Counted from the stretch's first letter, positions 4,644 to 15,700 are shown. The stretch: 16,397 nucleotides of DNA from an uncultured Verrucomicrobiota bacterium (GCA_964514435.1 CAZEQV010000042.1:1-16397), one strand, 5' to 3'. The notes: generated by a model from the sequence alone, not told the origin. A program made the numbers and translations.

Positions 4644-4657
<14 letters not shown>

Positions 4658-5159
4658 AGGCGGCGGAAGAGTGGATGGTTGGATGAGTGGAAGGATGGAT
4701 GGGGGAAAGGGTGGAAGATTGAGGGACTTCGTAGGCGGCATTGGATTCGCGGACGATGAAACTTTCGTTCCAATCACCCTCTTCCAGTTTGTGCTGGAGT
4801 GATTCGATGAGCCTCTTGAGACCATTCTCCATCGTATAGGCAATGGCATCGCATTTTTCGAATTGGTCCGGGGTGATCTGGTTGCTGCGGCGATAGGCGT
4901 GGAGGCCGGAAACGGTTTCGCCGGCGGAACCGAGCGCAATGTTGAGGTGCTGGAGATATTCTTTCAAGGTGCGCCGGCAGTAGCCTTCCGCGATGTTGCG
5001 ATGGATGGAATCGGCAGCGGCCATCTGGTTGGCGGCGATGCGTCGTAATTCGTAGGGAAACGAGCGGAAGATGTCGCAGGTGAGGACGTAGTATTCAATC
5101 GCATCCTGCCAAACAACAAGTTGCCGGTATCCACGATTGATGTTCCGTCGGGGACTCAT
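4644..5159 (-). CDS. Four helix bundle protein (Avd / 23S rRNA-intervening-sequence protein family), copy A. Its C-terminal tail is encoded by the repeat array.
   Basis: The core YRQLVVWQDAIEYYVLTCDIFRSFPYELRRIAANQMAAADSIHRNIAEGYCRRTLKEYLQHLNIALGSAGETVSGL is typical of this family (NIAEG...K.F...L..A.GS..E). The ATG at 5159-5157 was verified (MSPRRNINRG). The last ~30 codons (LSPIHPSTHPTIHSS) are read from the GGATGG array. The stop at 4644 lies 14 nt inside the ATPase start. Confidence 0.75.
4666..4726. repeat. Degenerate GGATGG/GGAAGG heptamer-like tandem array; the downstream (3') arm of the inverted-repeat pair around four-helix gene A
   Basis: Plus strand reads gaagagtggatggttggatgagtggaaggatggatgggggaaagggtggaagattgaggga. 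This is the reverse complement of the array at 5160-5246. Confidence 0.75.
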
Positions 5160-5246
5160 CCACCCTTCCATCCTTCCATCCATCGTTTCCTCCATTATTC
5201 CATCCCTCCCATCTCCCACCTGTCCATCCTTCCATTCTTCCCTCAC
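5160..5246. repeat. CCATCC/CCTTCC heptamer-like tandem array; the upstream arm of the inverted-repeat pair around four-helix gene A
   Basis: Plus strand reads cacccttccatccttccatccatcgtttcctccattattccatccctcccatctcccacctgtccatccttccattcttccctcactcc. It spans exactly from the HflK-like stop (5243-5245) to the four-helix A ATG (5159). Confidence 0.75.
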
Positions 5247-6256
5247 TCCGCCCCTCCGATCGGTTTCGGTTCTGGTGTGAGCAGCAGCCGCAGTTCTTGC
5301 TGGCCGTGCTCGTTTCGGTGGATGAGGAACTTCTGGTCCACGTTGCTGAGCGTGCGGCGGAGCGTGTCTTGGAGCAGCGTCCGCGCGATGATGTCGGGGT
5401 TTTTCTGGTATTGCTCGTAAACTTTGGTGAAGTAATCCGCGCTTGCGCCAACCTCGGCCACGACGCGGCGTTTGTAGGCTTCGCCTTCGGCGATAAGCCG
5501 GGCGGCTTCGCCTTGCGCTTCGTTCAACGTGCGCGTGGCGAGCGCGCGCGCCGCGCTGATCTTGCCGCTGCGTTCCTGCTCCGCCTCGATGACCGCGCTG
5601 AACGCGGCGGCGACTTGCCGGGGCGGCAACAGGGCGAGCACGTCCACACGCTCAATCCGCACCCCAAGCCCCAGCGCATCCACCCGGCGGCGCAACTCAC
5701 CATCCACCGCGTCGCGCAACGCCTCGATCTCGGTCCGCAACGCTTGATCCACGGGGAACCGCGCCGTGCATTTGACGATGGCGTGGTCAAGCTCGCGCTG
5801 GAGAATGGCGGACGGGTCTCTCAGCCGGAAACTATACGTTTCCAAATCCACGACCGTGTAACGGACGGCCCATTTGGCGTGGATCAGGTTGGCGTCGCCG
5901 GTCAGGGTGTAACCATCGGCACCGGGCTGCAACGTCGCGGCGCCCGAGTTCTCACGAGGCATGAACGTGCCGGTTTCCACGGCTTGCACCCGCTCGGTCG
6001 GGATGCGGACGATTTCCGCGACCGGCTTGGGCCACGTCCAATGCAGGCCGGGACCTTTCAACCGGTCCGCACCCATGCCGGCAATCTTGCCGAACACGAG
6101 AACGTAGGCGCGTTCGTGTTGGCCGACGATGAAGACGCCGGAGAACAGGTACGCGACCACGACGCCGACCATCACCCAGCGTAACGCGCGGAAACTCGTC
6201 GTCAGCGCGCCGGTGAGGGCGGCTTGGCCGGTATCGTTGTGTGTGGTCTGAGTCAT
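5243..6256 (-). CDS. SPFH/Band-7 family protein, HflK-like
   Basis: An N-terminal TM segment (WVMVGVVVAYLFSGVFIV) is followed by an SPFH domain (ERAYVLVFGKIAG...GLHWTWP) and a coiled-coil region (AEQERSGKISAARALA...AEGEAYKRRVVAEVGA). The ATG at 6256-6254 overlaps the upstream TAA by 1 nt. Confidence 0.75.
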   Translation of the reverse strand: MTQTTHNDTGQAALTGALTTSFRALRWVMVGVVVAYLFSGVFIVGQHERAYVLVFGKIAGMGADRLKGPGLHWTWPKPVAEIVRIPTERVQAVETGTFMPRENSGAATLQPGADGYTLTGDANLIHAKWAVRYTVVDLETYSFRLRDPSAILQRELDHAIVKCTARFPVDQALRTEIEALRDAVDGELRRRVDALGLGVRIERVDVLALLPPRQVAAAFSAVIEAEQERSGKISAARALATRTLNEAQGEAARLIAEGEAYKRRVVAEVGASADYFTKVYEQYQKNPDIIARTLLQDTLRRTLSNVDQKFLIHRNEHGQQELRLLLTPEPKPIGGAE

Positions 6257-7149
6257 TATTTTTTTGGGAGCGCCTTGTCGCCTTGGAGCAGGTCGAACGG
6301 TTCGGTTTCGCTGCTCAACACGACGGTGGATTTGGTCTTCAACGTCAATTCGAGGACTTCCAATTTCCGGAGGAACATCGCCAGCTCGGGGTTCTTCTCG
6401 AACACCTGATACGATTCCGCCGCCTTCGCATCGCCCTCGGCGCGGATGCCTTTGGCCTCGGCTTCCGCTCTGGCGAGGAGTTGATTGCGGGTGCTGTCGG
6501 CTTCGGCGCGCAACTTGATCGCTTCCCCTTCGCCCTCGGACCGGTAACGCTCGGCAATCTCCTCGCGTTCGGCGCGCATCCGGGCGAACACCTTTTCCGT
6601 GATGGATTCCGGCAACCCAATTTTGCGGACGCCGAGGAACTGCACCTCGACGCCATACCGGCTCACCGCCTCCGGTTGGACTGCCGCCAGCATCTGCTGT
6701 TCGATGGCCTCGAACTGCACGGCGGCGGCGTTGGTGTTGATCAAGCCGGCAAAGGGAAACTGGCCGAGCACGGCGTTTTTCTGACTGCGCAGCAGGCCGT
6801 CGAGATTGCGCTCGGCTTGTTCGACCGTGCCGACGCGTTCGAGAAATTGAATCGGCTGCTGAATCCGCCAGCCGGCATAGACGGCGACGAGGATGTTCTT
6901 GCCGTCGCGGGTCAAAGTTTCTTCAAACGCCCCTTCGAGCGTATGCGTCCGGTTATCGAACCGGTAAATCCGTTGCACCGGCCACGGCCAGCGCGTGTAC
7001 AGCCCGGCCGCGGTGAGTTCGCGCACCGGCTTGCCGAATGTGGTGACAACGACGGCCTCGCCTTCGCGCACCGTGAACAGCACTTGGAGCAGCACAAACA
7101 TCACGGCCACCAGCAGGCCGACGGTTAAAAGCAACGTGTTTCGTTTCAT
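6256..7149 (-). CDS. SPFH/Band-7 family protein, HflC-like
   Basis: MKRNTLLLTVGLLVAVMFVLLQVLFTVREGEAVVVTTFGKPV...RMRAEREEIAERYRSEGEGEAIKLRAEAD parallels the E. coli HflC architecture. A GGAGG sequence sits 7 nt upstream of the ATG 7149-7147. Confidence 0.75.
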   Translation of the reverse strand: MKRNTLLLTVGLLVAVMFVLLQVLFTVREGEAVVVTTFGKPVRELTAAGLYTRWPWPVQRIYRFDNRTHTLEGAFEETLTRDGKNILVAVYAGWRIQQPIQFLERVGTVEQAERNLDGLLRSQKNAVLGQFPFAGLINTNAAAVQFEAIEQQMLAAVQPEAVSRYGVEVQFLGVRKIGLPESITEKVFARMRAEREEIAERYRSEGEGEAIKLRAEADSTRNQLLARAEAEAKGIRAEGDAKAAESYQVFEKNPELAMFLRKLEVLELTLKTKSTVVLSSETEPFDLLQGDKALPKK

Positions 7150-7165
7150 CGGATAACCTCCGTGG

Positions 7166-7229
7166 AAATGACGAATGACGAATGACCAATGACGAAAGAA
7201 TGACGAGGGCGGAAATGACGAATGGATGG
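7166..7229. repeat. AATGACG heptamer tandem array; the downstream arm of the inverted-repeat pair around four-helix gene B
   Basis: gaaatgacgaatgacgaatgaccaatgacgaaagaatgacgagggcggaaatgacgaatggatgg. It is the reverse complement of the array at 7585-7633. It ends in ggatgg, the unit of the element-A arrays. Confidence 0.8.
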
Positions 7230-7231
7230 CA

Positions 7232-7630
7232 TCAGTCGGCGCTCCTTCCGTTGCGCATGATCGCGGCGAAGATCAGATGCAATTCTTTGGCTTCTTGCCA
7301 GAGTTTGCGCGCGGTTTCTTTGTGGGATGGTTCGGCGGTGGCAATCATACGGAGCCAGTGTTTCGTTTCGCGCGCCTCGCGTTTGCAGATGCTGATTTTA
7401 TGCAGAAAATCTTTCTTCGAGTGTGCGTCATCCGCTTCCACGTAGTTGGCCCCGACGCTGGTTCCCGACCGCACTAACTGACTCACCAATGGTAGCGTAA
7501 CCGGCGTGCTAGGCACGCTCCTGCAAAAACCAATGATTGCCTCGCCAAAAACAGCCGTGCGTTCTTCGAGGTCAAATTTCGGCTTCGTCATTGGACATTC
7601 TTTCGTCATTCGGATTTCGTCATTCGTCAT
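7232..7630 (-). CDS. Four helix bundle protein (Avd / 23S rRNA-intervening-sequence protein family), copy B
   Basis: FDLEERTAVFGEAIIGFCRSVPSTPVTLPLVSQLVRSGTSVGANYVEADDAHSKKDFLHKISICKREARETKHWLRMI are family motifs. Three in-frame ATGs (7630, 7609, 7591) are all created by AATGACG repeat units. The ATG at 7630 overlaps the upstream TGA as ATGA, and the likely functional start is 7591 (MTKPKF). Confidence 0.8.
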   Translation of the reverse strand: MTNDEIRMTKECPMTKPKFDLEERTAVFGEAIIGFCRSVPSTPVTLPLVSQLVRSGTSVGANYVEADDAHSKKDFLHKISICKREARETKHWLRMIATAEPSHKETARKLWQEAKELHLIFAAIMRNGRSAD

Positions 7631-7633
7631 TTC
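7585..7633. repeat. CGTCATT heptamer tandem array; the upstream arm of the inverted-repeat pair around four-helix gene B
   Basis: tcgtcattggacattctttcgtcattcggatttcgtcattcgtcatttc. The TGA stop of the upstream SPFH-fusion gene (7629-7627) is itself the first TGA of an AATGACG unit. Confidence 0.8.
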
Positions 7634-9432
7634 TTCGCACCCAGATCGAACAACTCGGGGCGCAGTTTCTCTTCAAAGTTCAGTTGATAGACTTCATTCG
7701 ACGCCGAGGCCGGCACGATAAACTTCCGCGTATCGGTCAACGCCCGCGCCACCGTGTCGAGATACAGGCTGGTGCGGAAAACTTGCGGCGATTTCTTGGC
7801 GGTCTCGGCTTGGATGAGAAACCGCTTGGCCTCGGCGGCGGAAATCTCCGCGCGCTGGGTCCGGTAAGCGGTCGCTTCAAGATTCGCCTTCGACGCCTCG
7901 GCGCCGGCCAGCGTCACGGTCTTGCCGGCTTGGGCGCGGGCGGCGAGCACGGTGGCTTCCTTTTGTTCGAGCGCACCGATGACGGATTGAAACGCCTCGG
8001 CGACTTGCGTCGGCGGATGCACGCCTTGGAGGCCCACGAACACGATGTGAACGCCGAGTTGCCGGCGGTCGGCTTCGGCTTGGATGCGTTGGCGGAGCGA
8101 CTCGGCGATGCGGGCTTGGCCGGGACCCATGATCTCAAACAGGTCGTGCGTGGCGGCTTCGAACGTGAGGCTCCGGTAAGCGATTTGCTCGATCAGGCGA
8201 CCGGCATCGGCGTTGTGGTACGCGAACGCCATCACGTTGGTGATTTGATATTCGACCGGGATATTGAAAGCGACGAGGTTGACCGGCACGCTGCCCTCGC
8301 CGACGCGCGGGGCGGCGACGAGAAATTGGTCTTCGCCTTCGGCGTGCGGGATATTCCACTGAATGACGGCTGGCTCGACGCCGGTGCTTTGGGGTTGGCC
8401 GATGCGAAAATTGAGGACGCGCTTGGCTGGGAAGCGTTGCACGACCTCGAACGGCCACGGGGCTTTCAGGTGAAACCCGCTGTCGAGGTGCGTGACCGGC
8501 TTGCCGAAGCGTTCGAGGATACCGCGTTCGTCGGGGCCGAGGAACACGAGGCAGGAAAGCAGATAGAGCGCGACGATCTGGAAGATGACCAGCGGCAACA
8601 ACGCGCCTTCGAGGAACCGGAACAACCACGTCTCGGAGACTTTGAAGCCGAATTGATAATCGAGCGCCCCGGCGACGTTGCGCGCCCAAGCGCCGGGGGC
8701 GATGAGCAGCTCGCCCAGCCGACTTTCATACGACCGGCAAGGTTCGCCGCGTCGGGGCCGGTAAAGTTCGGCGATGAAGTTGAGGAGGTTTTCCGCCGCC
8801 AAAACCACGAGGAAGCCGGTGAGGATGACGGCCGCCCAACGGTCCGCGGCCGGGAATCCAGCCTCGCCGGCCAACGTTGCCGCACCGGCCATCAACGACG
8901 CGATGCACGCCACGCCCAACGCGATACCGGCCCCGCGCAGCAGTCTTCCCAGTCCGAGCAGATACCGGCTGAGCAGGAACATGGTGAATGCCTGTCCGCC
9001 CAACGCCGCCAACGTCATCAGGCGGTGAGCCGGTGGGGTGGCCGGCAAGTTCAGATGCCGGTAGAGCCACCAAGTCACGGCGGCCAAACCCATGGCCAAT
9101 AGAAGGGCGATGGCGGGGACGAAGAACCGCTCGAATTGTTGCCGCGTGCGGGCGACGGTGAACAGTTCGGGCGCGGTTTCCCGGTCGAAGATCGAAGCGC
9201 TGGTTCGTTCGCGTTCCAGCAAGGCGGCTTCTTGTTTTTCTTCTTCGGCGCGGCGGGCGAGGCGTTCACGGATGAGAACCAGCAAGGACACGGCCAATGC
9301 CAGAGCGGGATAAGCGAGCAACGCCGGCAAGACACGGAGATGCGTCGCGCGGGCGAGCACGGCGTCCACGACCAGCCACGCCACGGCCAGCAGCGCCGCC
9401 AGCAGGGCGATTCGTTCGTTGCGTTTGTCCAT
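7627..9432 (-). CDS. Polytopic membrane protein fused to a C-terminal SPFH/Band-7 (HflK-like) domain
   Basis: Start taken at the verified ATG 9432-9430 (MDKRNERIALLAALLAVAWLV), which overlaps the upstream TGA by 1 nt. About 6-7 predicted TM helices in the first ~330 aa are followed by an SPFH domain (PDERGILERFGKPVTHLDSGFHLKAPWPFEVVQ...). A coiled-coil Ala/Glu-rich tail (ARAQAGKTVTLAGAEASKANLEATAYRTQRAEISAAEAKRF) ends the protein. Confidence 0.7.
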   Translation of the reverse strand: MDKRNERIALLAALLAVAWLVVDAVLARATHLRVLPALLAYPALALAVSLLVLIRERLARRAEEEKQEAALLERERTSASIFDRETAPELFTVARTRQQFERFFVPAIALLLAMGLAAVTWWLYRHLNLPATPPAHRLMTLAALGGQAFTMFLLSRYLLGLGRLLRGAGIALGVACIASLMAGAATLAGEAGFPAADRWAAVILTGFLVVLAAENLLNFIAELYRPRRGEPCRSYESRLGELLIAPGAWARNVAGALDYQFGFKVSETWLFRFLEGALLPLVIFQIVALYLLSCLVFLGPDERGILERFGKPVTHLDSGFHLKAPWPFEVVQRFPAKRVLNFRIGQPQSTGVEPAVIQWNIPHAEGEDQFLVAAPRVGEGSVPVNLVAFNIPVEYQITNVMAFAYHNADAGRLIEQIAYRSLTFEAATHDLFEIMGPGQARIAESLRQRIQAEADRRQLGVHIVFVGLQGVHPPTQVAEAFQSVIGALEQKEATVLAARAQAGKTVTLAGAEASKANLEATAYRTQRAEISAAEAKRFLIQAETAKKSPQVFRTSLYLDTVARALTDTRKFIVPASASNEVYQLNFEEKLRPELFDLGAKK

Positions 9433-10376
9433 CAGGCTTTGGTCTCGACGTTGCGGAACAGGAGCATGCCCAAACTCAGCACCCCAAGCAAATAGAACAT
9501 AGCATAGCCCGTGACTTGCCGGACATACGCCCATGGCACGGTCCCCTCGCCCGCGAGCGCGTCCGCCGTCCAAAAATGCTGCCAGTTCGGCAGGAGATTA
9601 TAGAAGAACGCGGCGAGGATGTTCGTTGGCGCATGTCGTCCGAGGAGGTAATCGGTGATCAATCCGGCCAGAAAGACGACGGTGCAAATAGCCAGGGTGG
9701 GCACGAGGTCAAGCCGGCTTGTCAGCGCCAAGGCGATTCCCGCCAACACGATGGTCGCCAGCGAAACGAGCGCCGATGAAGGCAGGACACGCCAAGAAAA
9801 ACCTTCGCGACCGGTGGCCAGCCACAACATTATGAAAATTAGGGGAATGAGCAGAACGAGCGCGGTGGAGACGAAATGCCAACGCGTGAGAATATTCAGT
9901 GCCGCCGCGACACCCAACGCAACGGCAATCGCCGTGATTGTTCCACCGGCGACCATCCAATCCACCTGATAGGCCTCGTGGCTGGCTTGGGAACTGAGCA
10001 ACGTCCCAAGTGCGATGACCGCGTCGAAGAGACTGAGCACCAAGACCACGCCGGCAAACTTGGCGAGAAAATACAGTTCACGACTGATGGGCTTCACCAA
10101 GACCACCGCCAAAGTGCCTCTTTGGATTTCCTTCCCCAGGGCGAAGCTGGCCGTGTAACCAGCCAGCACCAGACCGGCGACGAAATGCAACGCCAGCGCG
10201 CTGTCTTGGACGACCTGTTGGGCCTGCCCCATGGTGTGCATCAACAAGGCCGGCATCAGGGCTATGAACACCAAGCAGCTCACTGTCAACAGCAGCAGAA
10301 ATGGTTGCCGGACCGCTTCAAACAGAGTTAACGTCGCAACCGCTGCGAATCGCTTGAGAGAGTGGTGAAAGCTCAA
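9432..10376 (-). CDS. ABC-2 family transporter permease (paralog of the 1-1131 product)
   Basis: MSFHHSLKRFAAVATLTLFEAVRQPFLLLLTVSCLVFIAL...KEIQRGTLAVVLVKPISRELYFLAKFAG, with about 6 TM segments. The start codon at 10376 is TTG (no ATG nearby), so the exact start is uncertain. It is the first gene of the minus-strand operon. Confidence 0.65.
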   Translation of the reverse strand: MSFHHSLKRFAAVATLTLFEAVRQPFLLLLTVSCLVFIALMPALLMHTMGQAQQVVQDSALALHFVAGLVLAGYTASFALGKEIQRGTLAVVLVKPISRELYFLAKFAGVVLVLSLFDAVIALGTLLSSQASHEAYQVDWMVAGGTITAIAVALGVAAALNILTRWHFVSTALVLLIPLIFIMLWLATGREGFSWRVLPSSALVSLATIVLAGIALALTSRLDLVPTLAICTVVFLAGLITDYLLGRHAPTNILAAFFYNLLPNWQHFWTADALAGEGTVPWAYVRQVTGYAMFYLLGVLSLGMLLFRNVETKA

Positions 10377-10692: not shown

Positions 10693-12705
10693 ATGGATCA
10701 AGCGACAAATCAAATACTGTCGGCTCGGCGCGTGGCGGCGGCGGTGACGGTGGCCTTGCTCGGAAGCGCCATTGTCTGGGTGGCGGTGCCCTATAATAAT
10801 TTCTGGCTCAAGAATACCTACTTGTCCGACACGTTTCTTCCAGAGATTGCCATCGCGTTTCTATTGCTGCTGGTGTTGGTGGTGAATCCGTTGTTGCATG
10901 TGCTCCGGCCGGCTTGGGTGCTGCAACGGCGGCAGGTGGCGTTGATTGCGAGCCTGATGTTGTTTGCGGCGGTGCTGCCCAGTAACGGCTTGATGCGGAT
11001 GTTTCCCCGATTCGTTGCGCAATCGAATCAGGGCATGAATCAGAATCCGACGACGGCGCGCATCGCCGCGGAGGCTGGGTTCCGGCAGGCCTTGTTCCCC
11101 GATCCGTTGCCGGCGCGCGGGGCGGATGGGAGCGTGCAGACGCATGAGACGCCGGTCTCGGACCAGTTTCTGGATGAATTGGCCGAAGGCGCGACGATTC
11201 CGTGGTCGGCGTGGATCTGGCCCATGACGGCGTGGGGGCTGTTGATCGTCGCGCTGTGGACGATGATGATTGGGCTGGGGGGTATGGTGTATCCGCAGTG
11301 GCGGGACCGGGAACGGTTGCCGTTTCCGCTGTTGAACGTCTATCACGCGCTCATCGGCGATCCCGACAACCAGTCAAAAGGTTTGTTGCCGTCGGTATTC
11401 CGAAGCCGGGGCTTTTGGATTGCGGCCATCGTGGTGTTCATCATCCACGCCACGCGCGGGTTGAGCGCGTTCACCGGGGCGTTCCCCGAATTTCCTTTGT
11501 CGTGGAACCTGGAGGCATATTTCACGGACAGCATTTTTCGGCACACCACCATTGCGCTGAAGCGGCAATCCATCTTTTTCGCGCTGATCGGCGTGGCGTA
11601 TTTCATTCCGAACCGGTATGCGATTTCAGTGTGGGGGTGGGTGGTGGGGTATGCGTTGTATGTGATGGCGGGCCGGGCGTTCGTGCCGGCGTTCAATGAG
11701 GGCCAGGCGGCCGACCAGTCGTTTGGCGCGTTGCTGGCGATTGCGGCGTGGGTGTTGTGGTTGGGGCGGACGCATTGGGCGCAGGTCGGCCGCGCGATGC
11801 TCGGCCGGGCCGGTGAGGGAGCGGAAAGCCGCCGGGATGGGCTGGCGGGGTGGATGTTTGCTGGCGGGTGTGCCGGGATCGTTTGTTGGTTGTATTGGGC
11901 GGGGTGTTCGTTGTGGTGGAGTCTGCTGGCCATGTTCGGCTGCGCGGTGGTGACGTTGTTGATGGCGCGCATCATCGCGGAGACGGGGATACCGGTGTTG
12001 TGGGTCGGTCAGATGAGCGTGGGCCAACTGACCGCGCTGTTTCCGCTCTCGTGGCAATCGCCCGTGATTCTCTATTTCACGGGGGTATTTCACGTTTTGT
12101 TGACGCGGGCGTCGGCGATGAGCGCGGCGGTGATCACCACGCTCTCGTTGGGGATGGATCGAAAGGCGTCCGCCGCGAATCATTCCCGGCTGCTCTTGGC
12201 CGGGTTGGTGGTGTTGGTGCTGGGGTTCGTGGTGTGCGGCGCGGTGCATCTGAACATGGGCTACTACAGCGCGGACATCACGACGGAGGCCAAAACGGAC
12301 GCGAGCCGGCTCAACGATTGGGTGCGGGCGGATCGGGCGACCTTCGATTTCTTCACGATCAAGCGATGGCATCAAGGAGTTGGGGCGACGATTGCCGGCG
12401 GGTTGTTGTGGGTGTGTTCGCGTTTTCCATCCTGGCCGATACATCCGGTGGGGATTATTTTTTGCCAGCTCAGCATCGGCAATCTCATCTGGTTCAGCAT
12501 TTTTGCGGGTTGGCTGCTGAAGACGGCCATTACCGGGCTGTTTGGGGGCGGGGCGTACCGGAAAGCGCGGCCGGTTTTCTTGGGATTGATCTTTGGTGAA
12601 TTGTTGGCGGTCATCGTCTGGACGTTGGTGCCGGTGATCATTATTTGGGTGACCGGCGCGGACCCGGCCACGGTGCCGCGCTATATGTTGATGCAATATC
12701 CGTAA
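10693..12705 (+). CDS. Large polytopic integral membrane protein of unknown function (670 aa, more than 12 predicted TM helices)
   Basis: ATG at 10693 and TAA at 12703-12705. Hydrophobic helices run throughout (VALLGSAIVWVAV, IAIAFLLLLVLVV, WGLLIVALWTMMIGLGG, FWIAAIVVFIIHA, AISVWGWVVGYALYVMAG and others). No recognisable catalytic motifs. Trp/Gly-rich. Confidence 0.7.
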   Translation: MDQATNQILSARRVAAAVTVALLGSAIVWVAVPYNNFWLKNTYLSDTFLPEIAIAFLLLLVLVVNPLLHVLRPAWVLQRRQVALIASLMLFAAVLPSNGLMRMFPRFVAQSNQGMNQNPTTARIAAEAGFRQALFPDPLPARGADGSVQTHETPVSDQFLDELAEGATIPWSAWIWPMTAWGLLIVALWTMMIGLGGMVYPQWRDRERLPFPLLNVYHALIGDPDNQSKGLLPSVFRSRGFWIAAIVVFIIHATRGLSAFTGAFPEFPLSWNLEAYFTDSIFRHTTIALKRQSIFFALIGVAYFIPNRYAISVWGWVVGYALYVMAGRAFVPAFNEGQAADQSFGALLAIAAWVLWLGRTHWAQVGRAMLGRAGEGAESRRDGLAGWMFAGGCAGIVCWLYWAGCSLWWSLLAMFGCAVVTLLMARIIAETGIPVLWVGQMSVGQLTALFPLSWQSPVILYFTGVFHVLLTRASAMSAAVITTLSLGMDRKASAANHSRLLLAGLVVLVLGFVVCGAVHLNMGYYSADITTEAKTDASRLNDWVRADRATFDFFTIKRWHQGVGATIAGGLLWVCSRFPSWPIHPVGIIFCQLSIGNLIWFSIFAGWLLKTAITGLFGGGAYRKARPVFLGLIFGELLAVIVWTLVPVIIIWVTGADPATVPRYMLMQYP

Positions 12706-12737
12706 TGCGGAATGCGGAAATCGGAATGCGGAATCAC
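12704..12737. repeat. Solo AATGCGG heptamer tandem array at a gene junction
   Basis: aatgcggaatgcggaaatcggaatgcggaatcac lies immediately after the TAA of the upstream gene. It supplies both candidate ATGs (12705, 12726) of the downstream gene. It is the same unit type as the arrays flanking four-helix gene B, but has no inverted partner and no enclosed gene. Confidence 0.7.
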
Positions 12738-15700
12738 AATACGACAACCTGGGGAAAGGCGCGGGGCGGCGAGCTTCGACCGCATTCTGCTTTTCGCATT
12801 GCGCCTTTGGCGGTCTGGCTGGTTTTGTGGTGCGGTGTTGCGGCGGCGTCCGATGACGATTTTGCGGCGCGCGTGCGGGCGGACACGGAATGGTTGAGCG
12901 GCTACGAGACACGTCAAGTGGGGACCCCAGCGCACCGGCGCGTGCAGGATGATTTGTTGGCCAAGCTTCGGGCGATCCCGGGCGCGCGGGTCTGGACGGA
13001 TGAGTTTCCGGTCGTCGTGCCGGTCCACACGGAGACGTATCTGGAGGTGGCCGGGCGGCGGGAAACGATCTATCCGCTGTGGCCGGATGTGGCGCGGTTG
13101 AATACGACGCCCCCGGACGGGATTAGCGGGAAGTTGATTTATGTGGGGGATGGGGACTACGGGCGATTGCCGGCGCGGAGTCTGCGGGGCAACATCGCCG
13201 TGATGGAGATGTCGGCCTGCGCGGATTACCCGCGAGTGTTCGACTTTGGCGCGTCGGCGGTGATTTTTCTGGAATCAGCGAAGGTCGGCGAGGTGATCAC
13301 CTCGCAACAATCGCTGTACAAGCCCCGGTACTATGTAAAGGCCGGGGCGTTGGCGGACGCGTTGCGCGCCGGCCCGGTTTCGGCCGGCAAGATTGTGTGT
13401 CGGGGCCGGTGGGAGACGGTCATGGCGCGCAACATCTATGCGGCCGTGAACGCGTCCGGTGCGAAAGGCGAGGCGCCGTACGCGGTCGTCGCGCCGTATG
13501 ATTCAATGAGCCGGGTGGTGGGGGTGGCACCGGGCGCTGACAGCGCGTTGGACTGCGCGATTGTGTTGAATCTGTTGCGGGACGTGGCCGGTCAGGCGCC
13601 GCGGCCGTTGCTGTTCGGGTTTGTGGACGCCTACCATATTAATCAACTGGGGATACGGCGGATGTCGGCGATGTTGACGAGCACGCCGAAGTGCCAAACC
13701 CGCGAGGCCTACCGGAAGATCGAACAGAAGGAACTCGACGCCTACCGGGAAGCGGCGAAGGAACTGGCGAAGTTTGACACCGTCGAGGCGGGACTGGCCG
13801 GGTTGAATAACCGGTACGCGGCGCCGCAGTTGCGCCGCTTGTTCAAGGACGCGGTGGGCACGGATTTGCTCCGGCTGCGCGAGCTTCAGGGAGAATTGCG
13901 CCTGGCGTCGCTGCGGATTGAGACGGAGAACTCACCGGCGATGCGGGTGCAGATGCTGGGGGCGTTGGAGAACAGCGCCGCCTGGCTGCTGGCGCATGTG
14001 GCGGGCGAGTTGACGACCGAGCAGCGCGCGGAGTTGGTGGCGGCCCGGCAGTTTGTGGCCGGACAAGATGTGGCGTCCGAGCCTTGGCAGGAGCTGGCCG
14101 GGGCGCGGGAACGGGCGAAGGGTTTGTTGGCGATTTGCACGGGCCCGTTGCGGGCGCGGAATCGGGTGTTGGAGGCGGTGTTGACGGGTGACCGGGAGGT
14201 ACCGGCGGAGTTTCTGCCGGTGGCGCGGACGATCTGGCAGGATGTGGCCGAGCGGGTGCGGGAACAGGTGCGGGAACAGGAGCAGCGGGCCGCGTTTTTC
14301 GAGCCGTTGGACCGCTTGCGGCGTGAAGTCGCGGAGCATTTTCAATTGCACACCGATGGCGTGGACCGGGCCGTGTGCAAGTTTGTCGTGGGCGTTGACC
14401 TGTCCGACTGCGGCGTGTTGGTGGGGCCGGGCATGCTGTGCGGTTACAACCGCATCGAACCGACGGACAAAGACTTGATGCGCGTGTTGAAGCGGGTGGT
14501 GAAACGCGGAGAAATCTGGCCGGCCCATTCGCCGGAGCGCAAGGTGGTCAATCTCGGCGCGATCGAAGGCCGGGTGGGTGGCAGCGGCGACATCGGGCAG
14601 CGGGCGTTGATCACGTCGGCGGCGCGGAGCTTCTTGTTGCCGGGCGTGACGTGGGTGACCGACGACGCGTTGCGCCAGCGGATGGATTCGCCGATGGACC
14701 GGTTTGACCAAGTGGATTGGAGCCGGATTGATCCGCAGTTGCCGGCCACGCGGCGTTTTCTGGATTGGTTGTTCACGTCCAAGGAGTTTGTGCCGGTCGC
14801 GAAGTCCGCGGAGGAAACCGCGGCGGCGTGGCGGCACGGGATGGGGCGCGTGGTCAATGTGTCGGCCGGCGAGACGGTGCCGCGCGTGCCGCAGCGCGGG
14901 TTCTTGGTGACGTTGATTGCCTATGGAGCGAACCGCGATGGCATTCGGCGGCAGGAGTTCGCGTGGACGGGGTACGACGGATCGTTTCGGATTCCGCTGA
15001 TGTGCGGCGAGATCAACGCCAACGTGCTAAACGGCAAAAACTTCAACATGGAGGCATTCAAACTCGATGAGTCGGGCGCGATTGTCGAGTCGTTGACCAA
15101 GACCGAGTCGCTCGTGGCGACGCGGTTGGCGACGACGTTCAGCGTCAGCACCAAGCCCGGCGAGCAACTGCCGCGCGCGGTGACGTTTGAATGCGCGGAG
15201 TTGAACGGGCCGGCATTCTTCGACGCGCGGTTCATGGAGCCGCTGACGCAGGCGATGTTGCTGGACGCGGGGCGCGGCGGGCCGCCGAAGAAGTCGTTGT
15301 TCAAAATGGACAGCACCGGCCAGATGTGGGGGCTGGTTCCGCCGGGAATGCGCTGGCAACTGGTGGTGCGCGCCGGCGCGGCGGGCGTGCGCATGGCGTT
15401 GCTCAACGCGGTGCCGGACGGCCGGCAGCGGGGACTGGATCTGCGTTCCACGTTCCAGCGCGGTTTCGAGGTGGAGGAACGGTTGCCGTCCCTCCCGGCG
15501 CACCTGGCGGCGCAAGACATCTATGTGTTGAACGATTGGCGGCTGACGGATTTCCGCGCGGCCGGGATTCGCAGCGAGAAGATTGACCAGATTCGCGCCG
15601 GCACGAAGAGGGAGTTGGAACTGGCCGCGGCGGCGCAGGCGGCGGATGACGCGGCCCGGTTGCAGCGCGCGGCGAACCGGGCGTTGGCCAGCGAGATCCG

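Follow-up and report, generated by a model that had tools for sequence, protein, structure and literature searches.

We analyzed a 16,397-nt stretch of DNA from an uncultured Verrucomicrobiota bacterium (GCA_964514435.1, CAZEQV010000042.1:1-16397; hereafter the window), in which an operon of SPFH genes contains a small gene enclosed between inverted arrays of a 7-nt repeat, a unit that we call cassette B. The operon lies entirely on the minus strand, in the order SPFH-fusion membrane protein, cassette B, HflC-like protein, second SPFH protein, cassette A and P-type ATPase. Upstream of cassette B, the host gene (7627-9573) encodes a membrane protein with a C-terminal SPFH/Band-7 domain (Pfam PF01145); downstream, the host gene (6256-7149) encodes the HflC-like SPFH protein (PF01145, E = 7e-29), next to the second SPFH gene (5243-6256). 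The gene inside cassette B (7232-7591, minus strand; 119 codons and a TGA) encodes a four-helix-bundle (4HB) protein of the PF05635/TIGR02436 family, the 23S rRNA intervening-sequence protein S23p. It is sense-oriented with the operon, and an independent JGI gene call (P0001; P-numbers denote protein or gene calls, and L-numbers the loci of relatives compared) returned the identical 119-residue product, whose start, M14, is the third in-frame ATG at 7589-7591. Members of this family stand in a like setting in many phyla and in unrelated operons, almost always in the sense orientation. In our view, cassette B is probably a selfish element of the intervening sequence (IVS) type that entered the operon by insertion and lacks a promoter of its own, with its gene in the loop of inverted 7-nt arrays.

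The heptamer AATGACG occurs 10 times in the window, where 2.9 copies are expected, and none of 200 shuffles reached that count. Nine of the 10 copies fall in two opposed patches, five on the plus strand (7167-7220) and four on the minus strand (7586-7631), with a single copy elsewhere; Tandem Repeats Finder (TRF) calls period-7 arrays at 7167-7196 and 7584-7631. In transcript sense, the upstream arm (7584-7633, minus strand) is an imperfect AATGACG array with units at 7625-7631, 7618-7624, 7604-7610 and 7586-7592. The downstream arm (7165-7229, minus strand) reads CGTCATT on the transcript, with AATGACG on the plus strand at 7167, 7174, 7188, 7199 and 7214, and is complementary to the upstream arm. 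The two arrays contain a 38-nt inverted repeat with 89% complementarity (7165-7202 and 7596-7633), and over their full extents they pair as a stem of roughly 40-60 bp. As RNA, the arm duplex has a free energy of -61.8 kcal/mol, compared to -28.5 ± 4.1 kcal/mol for shuffled arms (z = -8.1), an energy matched by six of 300 window pieces of equal geometry. When the whole 521-nt cassette region is folded, the minimum free energy and centroid structures both join arm to arm around the open reading frame (ORF). We regard formation of the stem in RNA as likely. An original prediction, made from the sequence alone, had proposed inverted AATGACG arrays around a four-helix-bundle gene, which is borne out, and the stem on which that prediction depended is stable.

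The arrays carry coding signals of the host genes and of the 4HB gene. The upstream arm holds the host stop codon and three in-frame ATGs (7628-7630, 7607-7609 and 7589-7591). As predicted, the host TGA is part of a repeat unit: the stop codon of the SPFH fusion (7627-7629) lies within the outermost heptamer (7625-7631) and overlaps an ATG, forming ATGA. Four tandem AATGACG units (7586-7631) stand directly ahead of the 4HB start, and the last of them supplies its ATG. At the other end, the ribosome-binding site and start of the HflC-like gene (7147-7161, minus strand; GGAGG at 7157-7161, ATG at 7147-7149) lie just outside the stem; the last downstream heptamer (7167-7173) is 17 nt from the ATG and 5 nt from GGAGG, rather than the 15 nt or so originally estimated. 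A conserved sub-motif of the upstream arm, GACGAAAGAATG, is also present in L001, L005, L008, L042, L129 and L130. The 'ggatgg' motif that had been proposed as a terminal feature common to cassettes A and B is absent from the orthologous cassettes L128, L129, L130 and L092. A consensus scan found no promoter-like or terminator-like site inside cassette B, and its arrays have no match in Rfam; a sub-threshold Rfam match to CcsR1 (8763-8840) lies inside the SPFH gene and is probably due to chance. A reading tied to the number of stop codons per frame was rejected, with counts of 1, 0 and 3 for cassette B, and it does not hold for the units of type A, for AAATCCG or for others. Three independent metagenome assemblies (L081-L083) contain this cassette with identical statistics for its arrays, and it is therefore not an assembly artefact.

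The enclosed gene's product matches Pfam PF05635 (E = 3.7e-15) and the TIGR02436 'four helix bundle protein' family (E = 4e-22). Its AlphaFold (AF2) model has four helices with a pLDDT of 93, and the top Foldseek matches to the model are the S23p-family structures 2RLD (TM 0.75-0.89) and 2GSC (Xanthomonas campestris XCC0516; TM about 0.8), followed by Avd of diversity-generating retroelements (DGRs; 8UB7_E and 4DWL, TM 0.62-0.74). The sequence itself matches 2RLD with E = 9e-14, and the protein is basic (pI 9.3). Across phyla, 38 alignment columns are invariant, whereas the two terminal tails (N and C), whose codons lie in or beside the arms, vary freely. Between orthologous cassettes, non-synonymous divergence (dN) is 0.09-0.18 and synonymous sites are saturated, with dN/dS < 0.1; these sequence comparisons indicate that the protein is under strong purifying selection and is consequently functional. 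For the same genome pairs, the proportion of synonymous differences (pS) is 0.68-0.83 in the 4HB gene versus 0.37-0.66 in HflC. This additional saturation could reflect replacement of the cassette, or simply the cassette's lower GC content at third codon positions (0.64 in the 4HB gene versus 0.76-0.82 in the host genes).

We scanned metagenome contigs with the HflC-like protein and obtained 24 loci with the same four-gene operon, and their comparison leaves little doubt that cassette B is an insertion. In cassette-free loci (L084-L088, L093, L096, L097 and L099-L102), the gap between the SPFH-fusion and HflC-like genes is 4-30 nt; with cassette B, the stop-to-start distance is 477 nt. The empty loci include the window's closest relative (L097, with 93% HflC identity) as well as L084-L088 (86-88%), so the arrangement is not strictly conserved. 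The empty junction of L097 reads GAAGAAGTAGGAGGATCATGAAACGAAAC, and the window reads GAAGAA[ATGACG...arm-ORF-arm...CATTTCCAC]GGAGGTTATCCGATGAAACGAAAC. An arm-gene-arm unit has entered the DNA where two co-transcribed SPFH genes were separated by very few nucleotides; the upstream gene now takes its stop codon from the inserted unit, and the downstream ribosome-binding site lies just outside the stem. The original suggestion that translational coupling is preserved holds in part: both flanking ORFs are intact and the upstream stop codon is supplied, but the stop-to-start distance has grown to 477 nt, against 4-30 nt in empty relatives.

At the same junction, a related 4HB gene with AATGAC-type arms is found in L089, L090 and L092 (84-85% HflC identity) and in L128-L130 (86-90%). 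Arm length varies between these close relatives while the protein is conserved, with downstream-arm gaps of 104 nt in L089, 86 nt in L090 and 137 nt in L092. In L091 (about 230-380), a B-type cassette keeps both arms and has lost about 330 nt of its ORF, a remnant that illustrates one way in which ORF-less hairpins can arise. In trees of the host genes, the empty L097 is nested among occupied lineages, the empty L084-L088 are sister to the occupied L089-L092, and the outgroups are all empty. Cassette B has therefore been inherited within a clade, in which it persisted during a 10-16% divergence of HflC; at least one lineage has lost it cleanly, and in another it was cut to an ORF-less hairpin. 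The proteins most closely related to the window's 4HB protein are those at site B in related hosts, which favours one old insertion followed by clean losses. The simplest history suggested by these sequences would be that the cassette was inserted once, long ago, then descended vertically and was cleanly lost at least once or twice, with repeated homing to site B as a possible alternative.

Cassette A (4644-5241, minus strand) is a second such unit in the same operon, with the second SPFH gene on one side and the gene for the P-type ATPase on the other. Its PF05635 gene starts at an ATG at 5157-5159 and runs to 4644, through the downstream arm, overlapping the ATG of the P-type ATPase gene. 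Its arms are GGAAGGATGG-type arrays at 5157-5241 with their complement at 4665-4715, and the predicted fold joins the outer arms; in L092, the downstream arm of cassette A is about 200 nt long. Site A is empty in L084-L087, L096, L097, L099, L101 and L102. In L095, site A is occupied by a PF05635 gene of yet another kind, a B-family member with 46% identity to B and AAATTCG/CGGATTT-type arms, and site B is empty. The original prediction held that cassettes A and B share only family-level motifs and inserted independently rather than by local duplication. Sequence comparison supports this view, because the two proteins give no BLASTP alignment even though both belong to PF05635, the repeat units differ (AATGACG in B, GGAAGGATGG-type in A), and the two sites are independently occupied in relatives.

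Hairpins of the same design also occur with no gene inside. The third junction of the operon, between the HflC-like and second SPFH genes, is a 4-nt overlap (ATAATGA) in the window and in L082. In L081, a strain-level variant with 97.6-100% protein identity across the operon, it instead carries a 155-nt ORF-less hairpin of type-A repeats (2433-2587), and the presence of this hairpin is consequently polymorphic at the strain level. A third-junction hairpin of about 215 nt is found in L089 (2035-2249), L091 and L092 (5894-6120), and in L089 and L092 it likewise consists of type-A repeats. Elsewhere in the window, an ORF-less hairpin (12704-12806, plus strand) has the design of cassette B without a gene: four AATGCGG units extend from the TAA of a DUF6785/DUF6784 gene, with the complement CCGCATT..CGCATT at about 12780-12804. 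The array is also called by TRF, and its stem of about 24 bp has a free energy of -52.3 kcal/mol (z = -2.1). It precedes a plus-strand ORF of >1,190 codons that runs off the window, and a similar GCGGAAT hairpin is present in L022 (6745-6814).

We found the gene-in-hairpin design in at least seven bacterial phyla. More than 7,300 homologues of the B-type protein were detected, the best 120 of which are all 67-83% identical to it. A scan with one genome per species gave 376 relatives; the best 80, at 61-76% identity, come from Verrucomicrobiota, Planctomycetota, Lentisphaerae, Patescibacteria (Candidate Phyla Radiation, CPR), WOR-3, Omnitrophota and others. We paired the 110 nt before each gene with the 110 nt after it and scored the duplex against shuffles, and 66 of the 83 related loci have pairing flanks with z <= -3. 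The best internal period of the flanks is 7 in most of the 83 loci, the repeat unit being AATGAC[G/C/T] or one related to it where the host is GC-rich, and AATTTCT/TCTAATT in AT-rich CPR hosts. The arms mirror one another down to their irregular spacers, and within a class the cognate pairs exceed non-cognate ones in stability (-73 versus -59 kcal/mol, p = 2e-8; -49 versus -38 kcal/mol, p = 2e-6).

A TRF-based scan of 767 kb identified 84 pairs of inverted heptamer or octamer arrays with a bimodal spacing. Most of them (58) are 300-550 nt apart and enclose an ORF of 120-150 codons, and all of the additional enclosed ORFs that we tested belong to PF05635; another 18, with spacings below 150 nt, are hairpins that hold no ORF. 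Wider 'pairs' are the facing arms of two adjacent elements around an ordinary gene. The host genes so placed include those of an S17-like ribosomal protein and an RNase HI-like protein (L054, 4414-5202; L068, 1549-2092). We inspected eight 4HB genes on complete plasmids from Nostocales in culture; seven are bracketed by clean tandem heptamers in inverted orientation (GTCGGAG, AATTCAA, GTAATTC, GTCGCAA, AATTCGC, GTCGGAA and GGTCGGA), and the repeat arrays of the eighth are arranged otherwise. Carriers that can be cultured include Nostoc punctiforme, Brevifollis gellanilyticus (L056) and Cerasicoccus frondis (L052).

The co-orientation with the operon that had been predicted for both cassettes extends to other hosts. 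Genes on both sides lie on the same strand in 19 of 22 low-GC loci, a count that relies on this subset and on called genes because the automatic test is noisy in high-GC loci, where antisense ORFs are spurious. The neighbouring proteins are mostly unrelated from locus to locus (45 of 2,145 pairs are related). Called-gene contexts include the gcvPA-gcvPB junction, a junction of an SIS with a HAD gene and junctions of SPFH genes, with gaps of 22-36 nt upstream and 67-83 nt downstream of the cassette. The glycine-cleavage genes gcvPA/gcvPB are split by the cassette encoding P0018 (L118-L127), and the P0030 cassette (L108-L117) lies between SIS-domain and HAD-hydrolase genes; each occupies one site in an abundant environmental species.

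The closest known counterparts of cassette B are the ORF-bearing IVSs of 23S rRNA, described in Leptospira, Coxiella burnetii, Xanthomonas and Brucella (PMC4990558). In C. burnetii, the IVS, described as selfish, carries its S23p ORF in a loop closed by an inverted-repeat stem that is cleaved by RNase III, with three tandem GACAGAT heptamers, strain-variable in copy number, before the start codon (PMC4990558). Cassette B likewise carries a PF05635/TIGR02436 gene, in sense orientation, in the loop of a stem with heptamers before the start, so its designation as IVS-like in the original prediction was apt; both kinds of element also have a sporadic distribution, which suggests horizontal transfer for the IVSs (PMC4990558), and in both the ORF has decayed in some copies. 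The two differ in three respects. IVSs lie in helix 25 or 45 of 23S rRNA, whereas cassette B lies between protein-coding genes of an mRNA operon, and no rRNA match was obtained in the window or in 19 related loci; the arms of cassette B are long arrays on both sides; and its protein is under purifying selection, whereas the Coxiella ORF is reported to be decaying and probably untranslated (PMC4990558). Cassette B is homologous to the ORF-bearing IVSs and probably works like them, yet it is found outside rRNA, the site by which they are defined.

As a selfish element of this type, cassette B would be transcribed only within the host operon. Its arms would pair in the RNA, and RNase III may cut the stem, as it does in the S23p-bearing Coxiella IVS. 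Such a cut would free the message for the 4HB protein and part the cistrons on either side, and the insertion would therefore cost the host little. The 4HB start codon is inside the stem, and consequently its translation probably depends on ribosomes or processing to open the stem. The arrays would change in length through replication slippage, the whole element would be lost by deletion across the palindrome, and ORF-less hairpins would be its decayed or non-autonomous derivatives. The Avd-like 4HB protein is probably pentameric. Our best guess, by analogy, is binding to the heptamer stem in the transcript that encodes it; this is the most economical guess because its homologue Avd is a basic pentamer that binds an RNA stem-loop. 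Even so, action of the protein on its own arms is possible but less likely than not.

Several observations weigh against an inserted selfish element. Processing of the stem by RNase III is argued from analogy, and we consider it evenly balanced. The mobility of the element is deduced from patterns of presence and absence, because the searches gave neither a target-site duplication nor a transposase, integrase or reverse transcriptase: filled junctions (window, L129 and L092) compared with empty ones (L097, L084 and L087) show no target-site duplication, and none of the large ORFs in the window has a reverse transcriptase, transposase or integrase domain. Recent intragenomic copying was considered and rejected; identical P0018 and P0030 sequences are found on about 50 contigs each, but at one genomic site each, and so give no sign of it. 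Phage vectors were likewise rejected, as IMG/VR viral contigs contain no relatives and GenBank phages gave just two weak partial matches. In the automatic test, 17 of the 83 loci lack pairing flanks, though several of these are ORF-end errors and were recovered by the TRF scan. Finally, the strong purifying selection on the protein and its long vertical residence would also fit a module that benefits its host.

In such a module, the stem would be a processing, stability or translational-coupling device that sets the SPFH expression ratio, and the 4HB protein would be an RNA-binding regulator. The dN/dS below 0.1 and the 38 columns invariant across phyla agree with this explanation, as does the clade-wide vertical retention of the cassette during the divergence of HflC, and hairpins of 7-bp repeats between hupS and hupL in cyanobacteria have been proposed as transcript stabilizers or translation couplers (PMC2670836). 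However, the closest relative and a whole sister group do without the cassette in an otherwise identical operon, deletion of its ORF is tolerated in L091, and its composition is atypical for the host. The same type of cassette is also found in dozens of unrelated operons. We consequently regard a host-beneficial module as unlikely.

A more remote alternative is that the 4HB gene belongs to a toxin-antitoxin, anti-phage defence or CRISPR-accessory system that inserts into operons. A large clustering study lists '23S rRNA IVP', together with HflK, among CRISPR-linked domains (PMC10910872), and one Anabaena copy lies between cas2 and cas1. However, PADLOC returned no meaningful match to a defence system, the gene stands singly with no partner, viral contigs hold no relatives, and the contexts are overwhelmingly housekeeping operons. 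A CRISPR link is what one would expect of a hitch-hiking cassette, and the association reported for 23S rRNA IVP may reflect hitch-hiking by cassettes that invade operons. We give this alternative very little weight.

Still less probable is that the 4HB gene is the Avd accessory of a DGR, with the repeats as part of it. PF05635 is the commonest domain beside DGR reverse transcriptases (PMC10053308). Avd is a basic pentamer that binds the DGR RNA stem-loop, and the DGR template is bracketed by complementary upstream and downstream segments (bioRxiv 10.1101/2023.10.23.563531). Its four-helix-bundle fold, assembled into a pentameric barrel, is homologous to that of the 4HB protein, and Foldseek detects the similarity. 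Yet 2RLD and 2GSC are clearly better matches to the 4HB protein in sequence and fold, the 16.4-kb window has no reverse transcriptase and no pair of template and variable repeats (its repeat search gave heptamer arrays only), and the neighbours in 80 loci are ordinary metabolic genes. It is equally hard to credit that the arrays are ordinary slippage-made simple-sequence repeats, or an assembly artefact, beside a small gene with no unit cassette: many bacteria have an excess of heptamer repeats, whose length differs from one relative to another (PMC4692102), and arm lengths vary here too (L089, L090 and L092), but arms that are complementary down to their irregular spacers and most stable in cognate pairs, a gene and arms that come and go together at precise junctions, and the same architecture in complete genomes of cultured Nostocales and in three assemblies of this element all speak against it.

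A selfish IVS-type element thus remains the reading that we prefer, and cassette B can be compared with other repeat-bearing elements on that basis. In REPIN/RAYT systems, bacterial interspersed mosaic elements (BIMEs) and MITEs, as in cassette B, one small gene can stand between inverted repeat copies, and the repeat also occurs as many ORF-less hairpins in transcribed intergenic regions, with presence/absence polymorphism. Those systems have a fixed palindrome and one domesticated transposase, whereas cassette B has variable tandem-array arms and many diverged gene copies. Its gene encodes not a RAYT transposase of the HUH (Y1) type but a four-helix bundle, which matches PF05635 only and lacks both HUH/Y1 and DDE motifs. 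Inverted arms flank the gene, its filled and empty junctions have no visible duplicated target, and the window has no transposase, though one encoded elsewhere in the genome might act in trans. An integron gene cassette differs in having a single attC hairpin 3′ of its ORF and an associated intI/attI, whereas cassette B has two arms and no integrase in the window.

Tandem heptamers in transcribed intergenic spacers are familiar from arrays of the short tandemly repeated repetitive (STRR) type. These include STRR heptamer hairpins between hupS and hupL in heterocystous cyanobacteria (PMC2670836), 70-75 GGGAATC arrays in Xanthomonas arranged as convergent inverted pairs (PMC4692102), and intergenic TAACTGA heptamer arrays in Beggiatoa and Microcystis (PMC4679880). 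Such arrays resemble cassette B in their tandem 7-nt units, in often forming hairpins between operon genes and in varying in length between close relatives; the passages searched in those papers link no gene to the inside of the arrays, whereas here a PF05635 gene is bracketed. The STRR-like form is represented in our data by the ORF-less hairpins at 12704-12806 and in L081. The (AATGACC)n unit may equal the cyanobacterial STRR2 repeat, (TTGGTCA)n; the direct evidence for cyanobacteria comes instead from the Nostocales plasmids.

These comparisons permit a broader proposal, which we put forward as speculation with modest odds of being right. PF05635 genes with inverted arrays would be the autonomous form of a pan-bacterial, unnamed foldback class that resides in hairpin-tolerant transcribed sites, such as operon junctions and 23S rRNA helices; STRR arrays, the Xanthomonas GGGAATC pairs and the hairpin at 12704-12806 would be its non-autonomous or decayed derivatives. 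An Avd-like pentamer would bind its own stem and help the element to be copied or maintained by way of an intermediate, either RNA or hairpin DNA, in which a reverse transcriptase of the host possibly takes part. In the literature searched we found no description of the cassette architecture outside rRNA, though one may exist in subscription journals or database family notes. The PF05635 hairpin cassette looks like a widespread and little-described selfish element. If so, three puzzles would become one phenomenon of genes in hairpins inside the transcripts of other genes: the ORF-bearing 23S rRNA IVSs, the large unexplained families of 'four helix bundle protein' in the Planctomycetes-Verrucomicrobia-Chlamydiae (PVC) group, CPR, Bacteroidota and cyanobacteria, and the intergenic heptamer arrays (STRR and relatives) known for decades. 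A protein family with thousands of members would also gain a testable function, the binding of its own repeat stem. Because the cassettes split operons (gcvPA/gcvPB, cas2/cas1 and SPFH), guilt-by-association will wrongly tie PF05635 to the operon that was invaded. Heptamer arrays may also break contigs, and assembly trouble has been reported for heptamer repeat regions (PMC4679880).

Several of the Nostocales plasmid copies have distinctive surroundings. In Anabaena cylindrica (L132, plasmid pANACY.01, 1527-3618), the 4HB gene lies antisense between cas2 and cas1. In Nostoc sp. ATCC 53789 (L137, plasmid pNsp_c, 946-1842), perfect AATTCGC/GCGAATT arrays enclose the gene, and the flanks are a coding sequence for a 76-residue 'DNA cytosine methyltransferase' and a hypothetical one of 92 residues; this cassette may have split a methyltransferase gene. 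On three Nostoc plasmids (L131, L135 and L136), 4HB cassettes recur directly upstream of the xisH/xisI excision-factor genes, near Tn7-like or integrase genes. Within the window itself, a ParE-family toxin gene (PF05016) and a possible antitoxin ORF of 73 codons (2508-2729) occupy positions 2209-2729 on the minus strand, between the genes for an ABC-transporter ATPase and the P-type ATPase.

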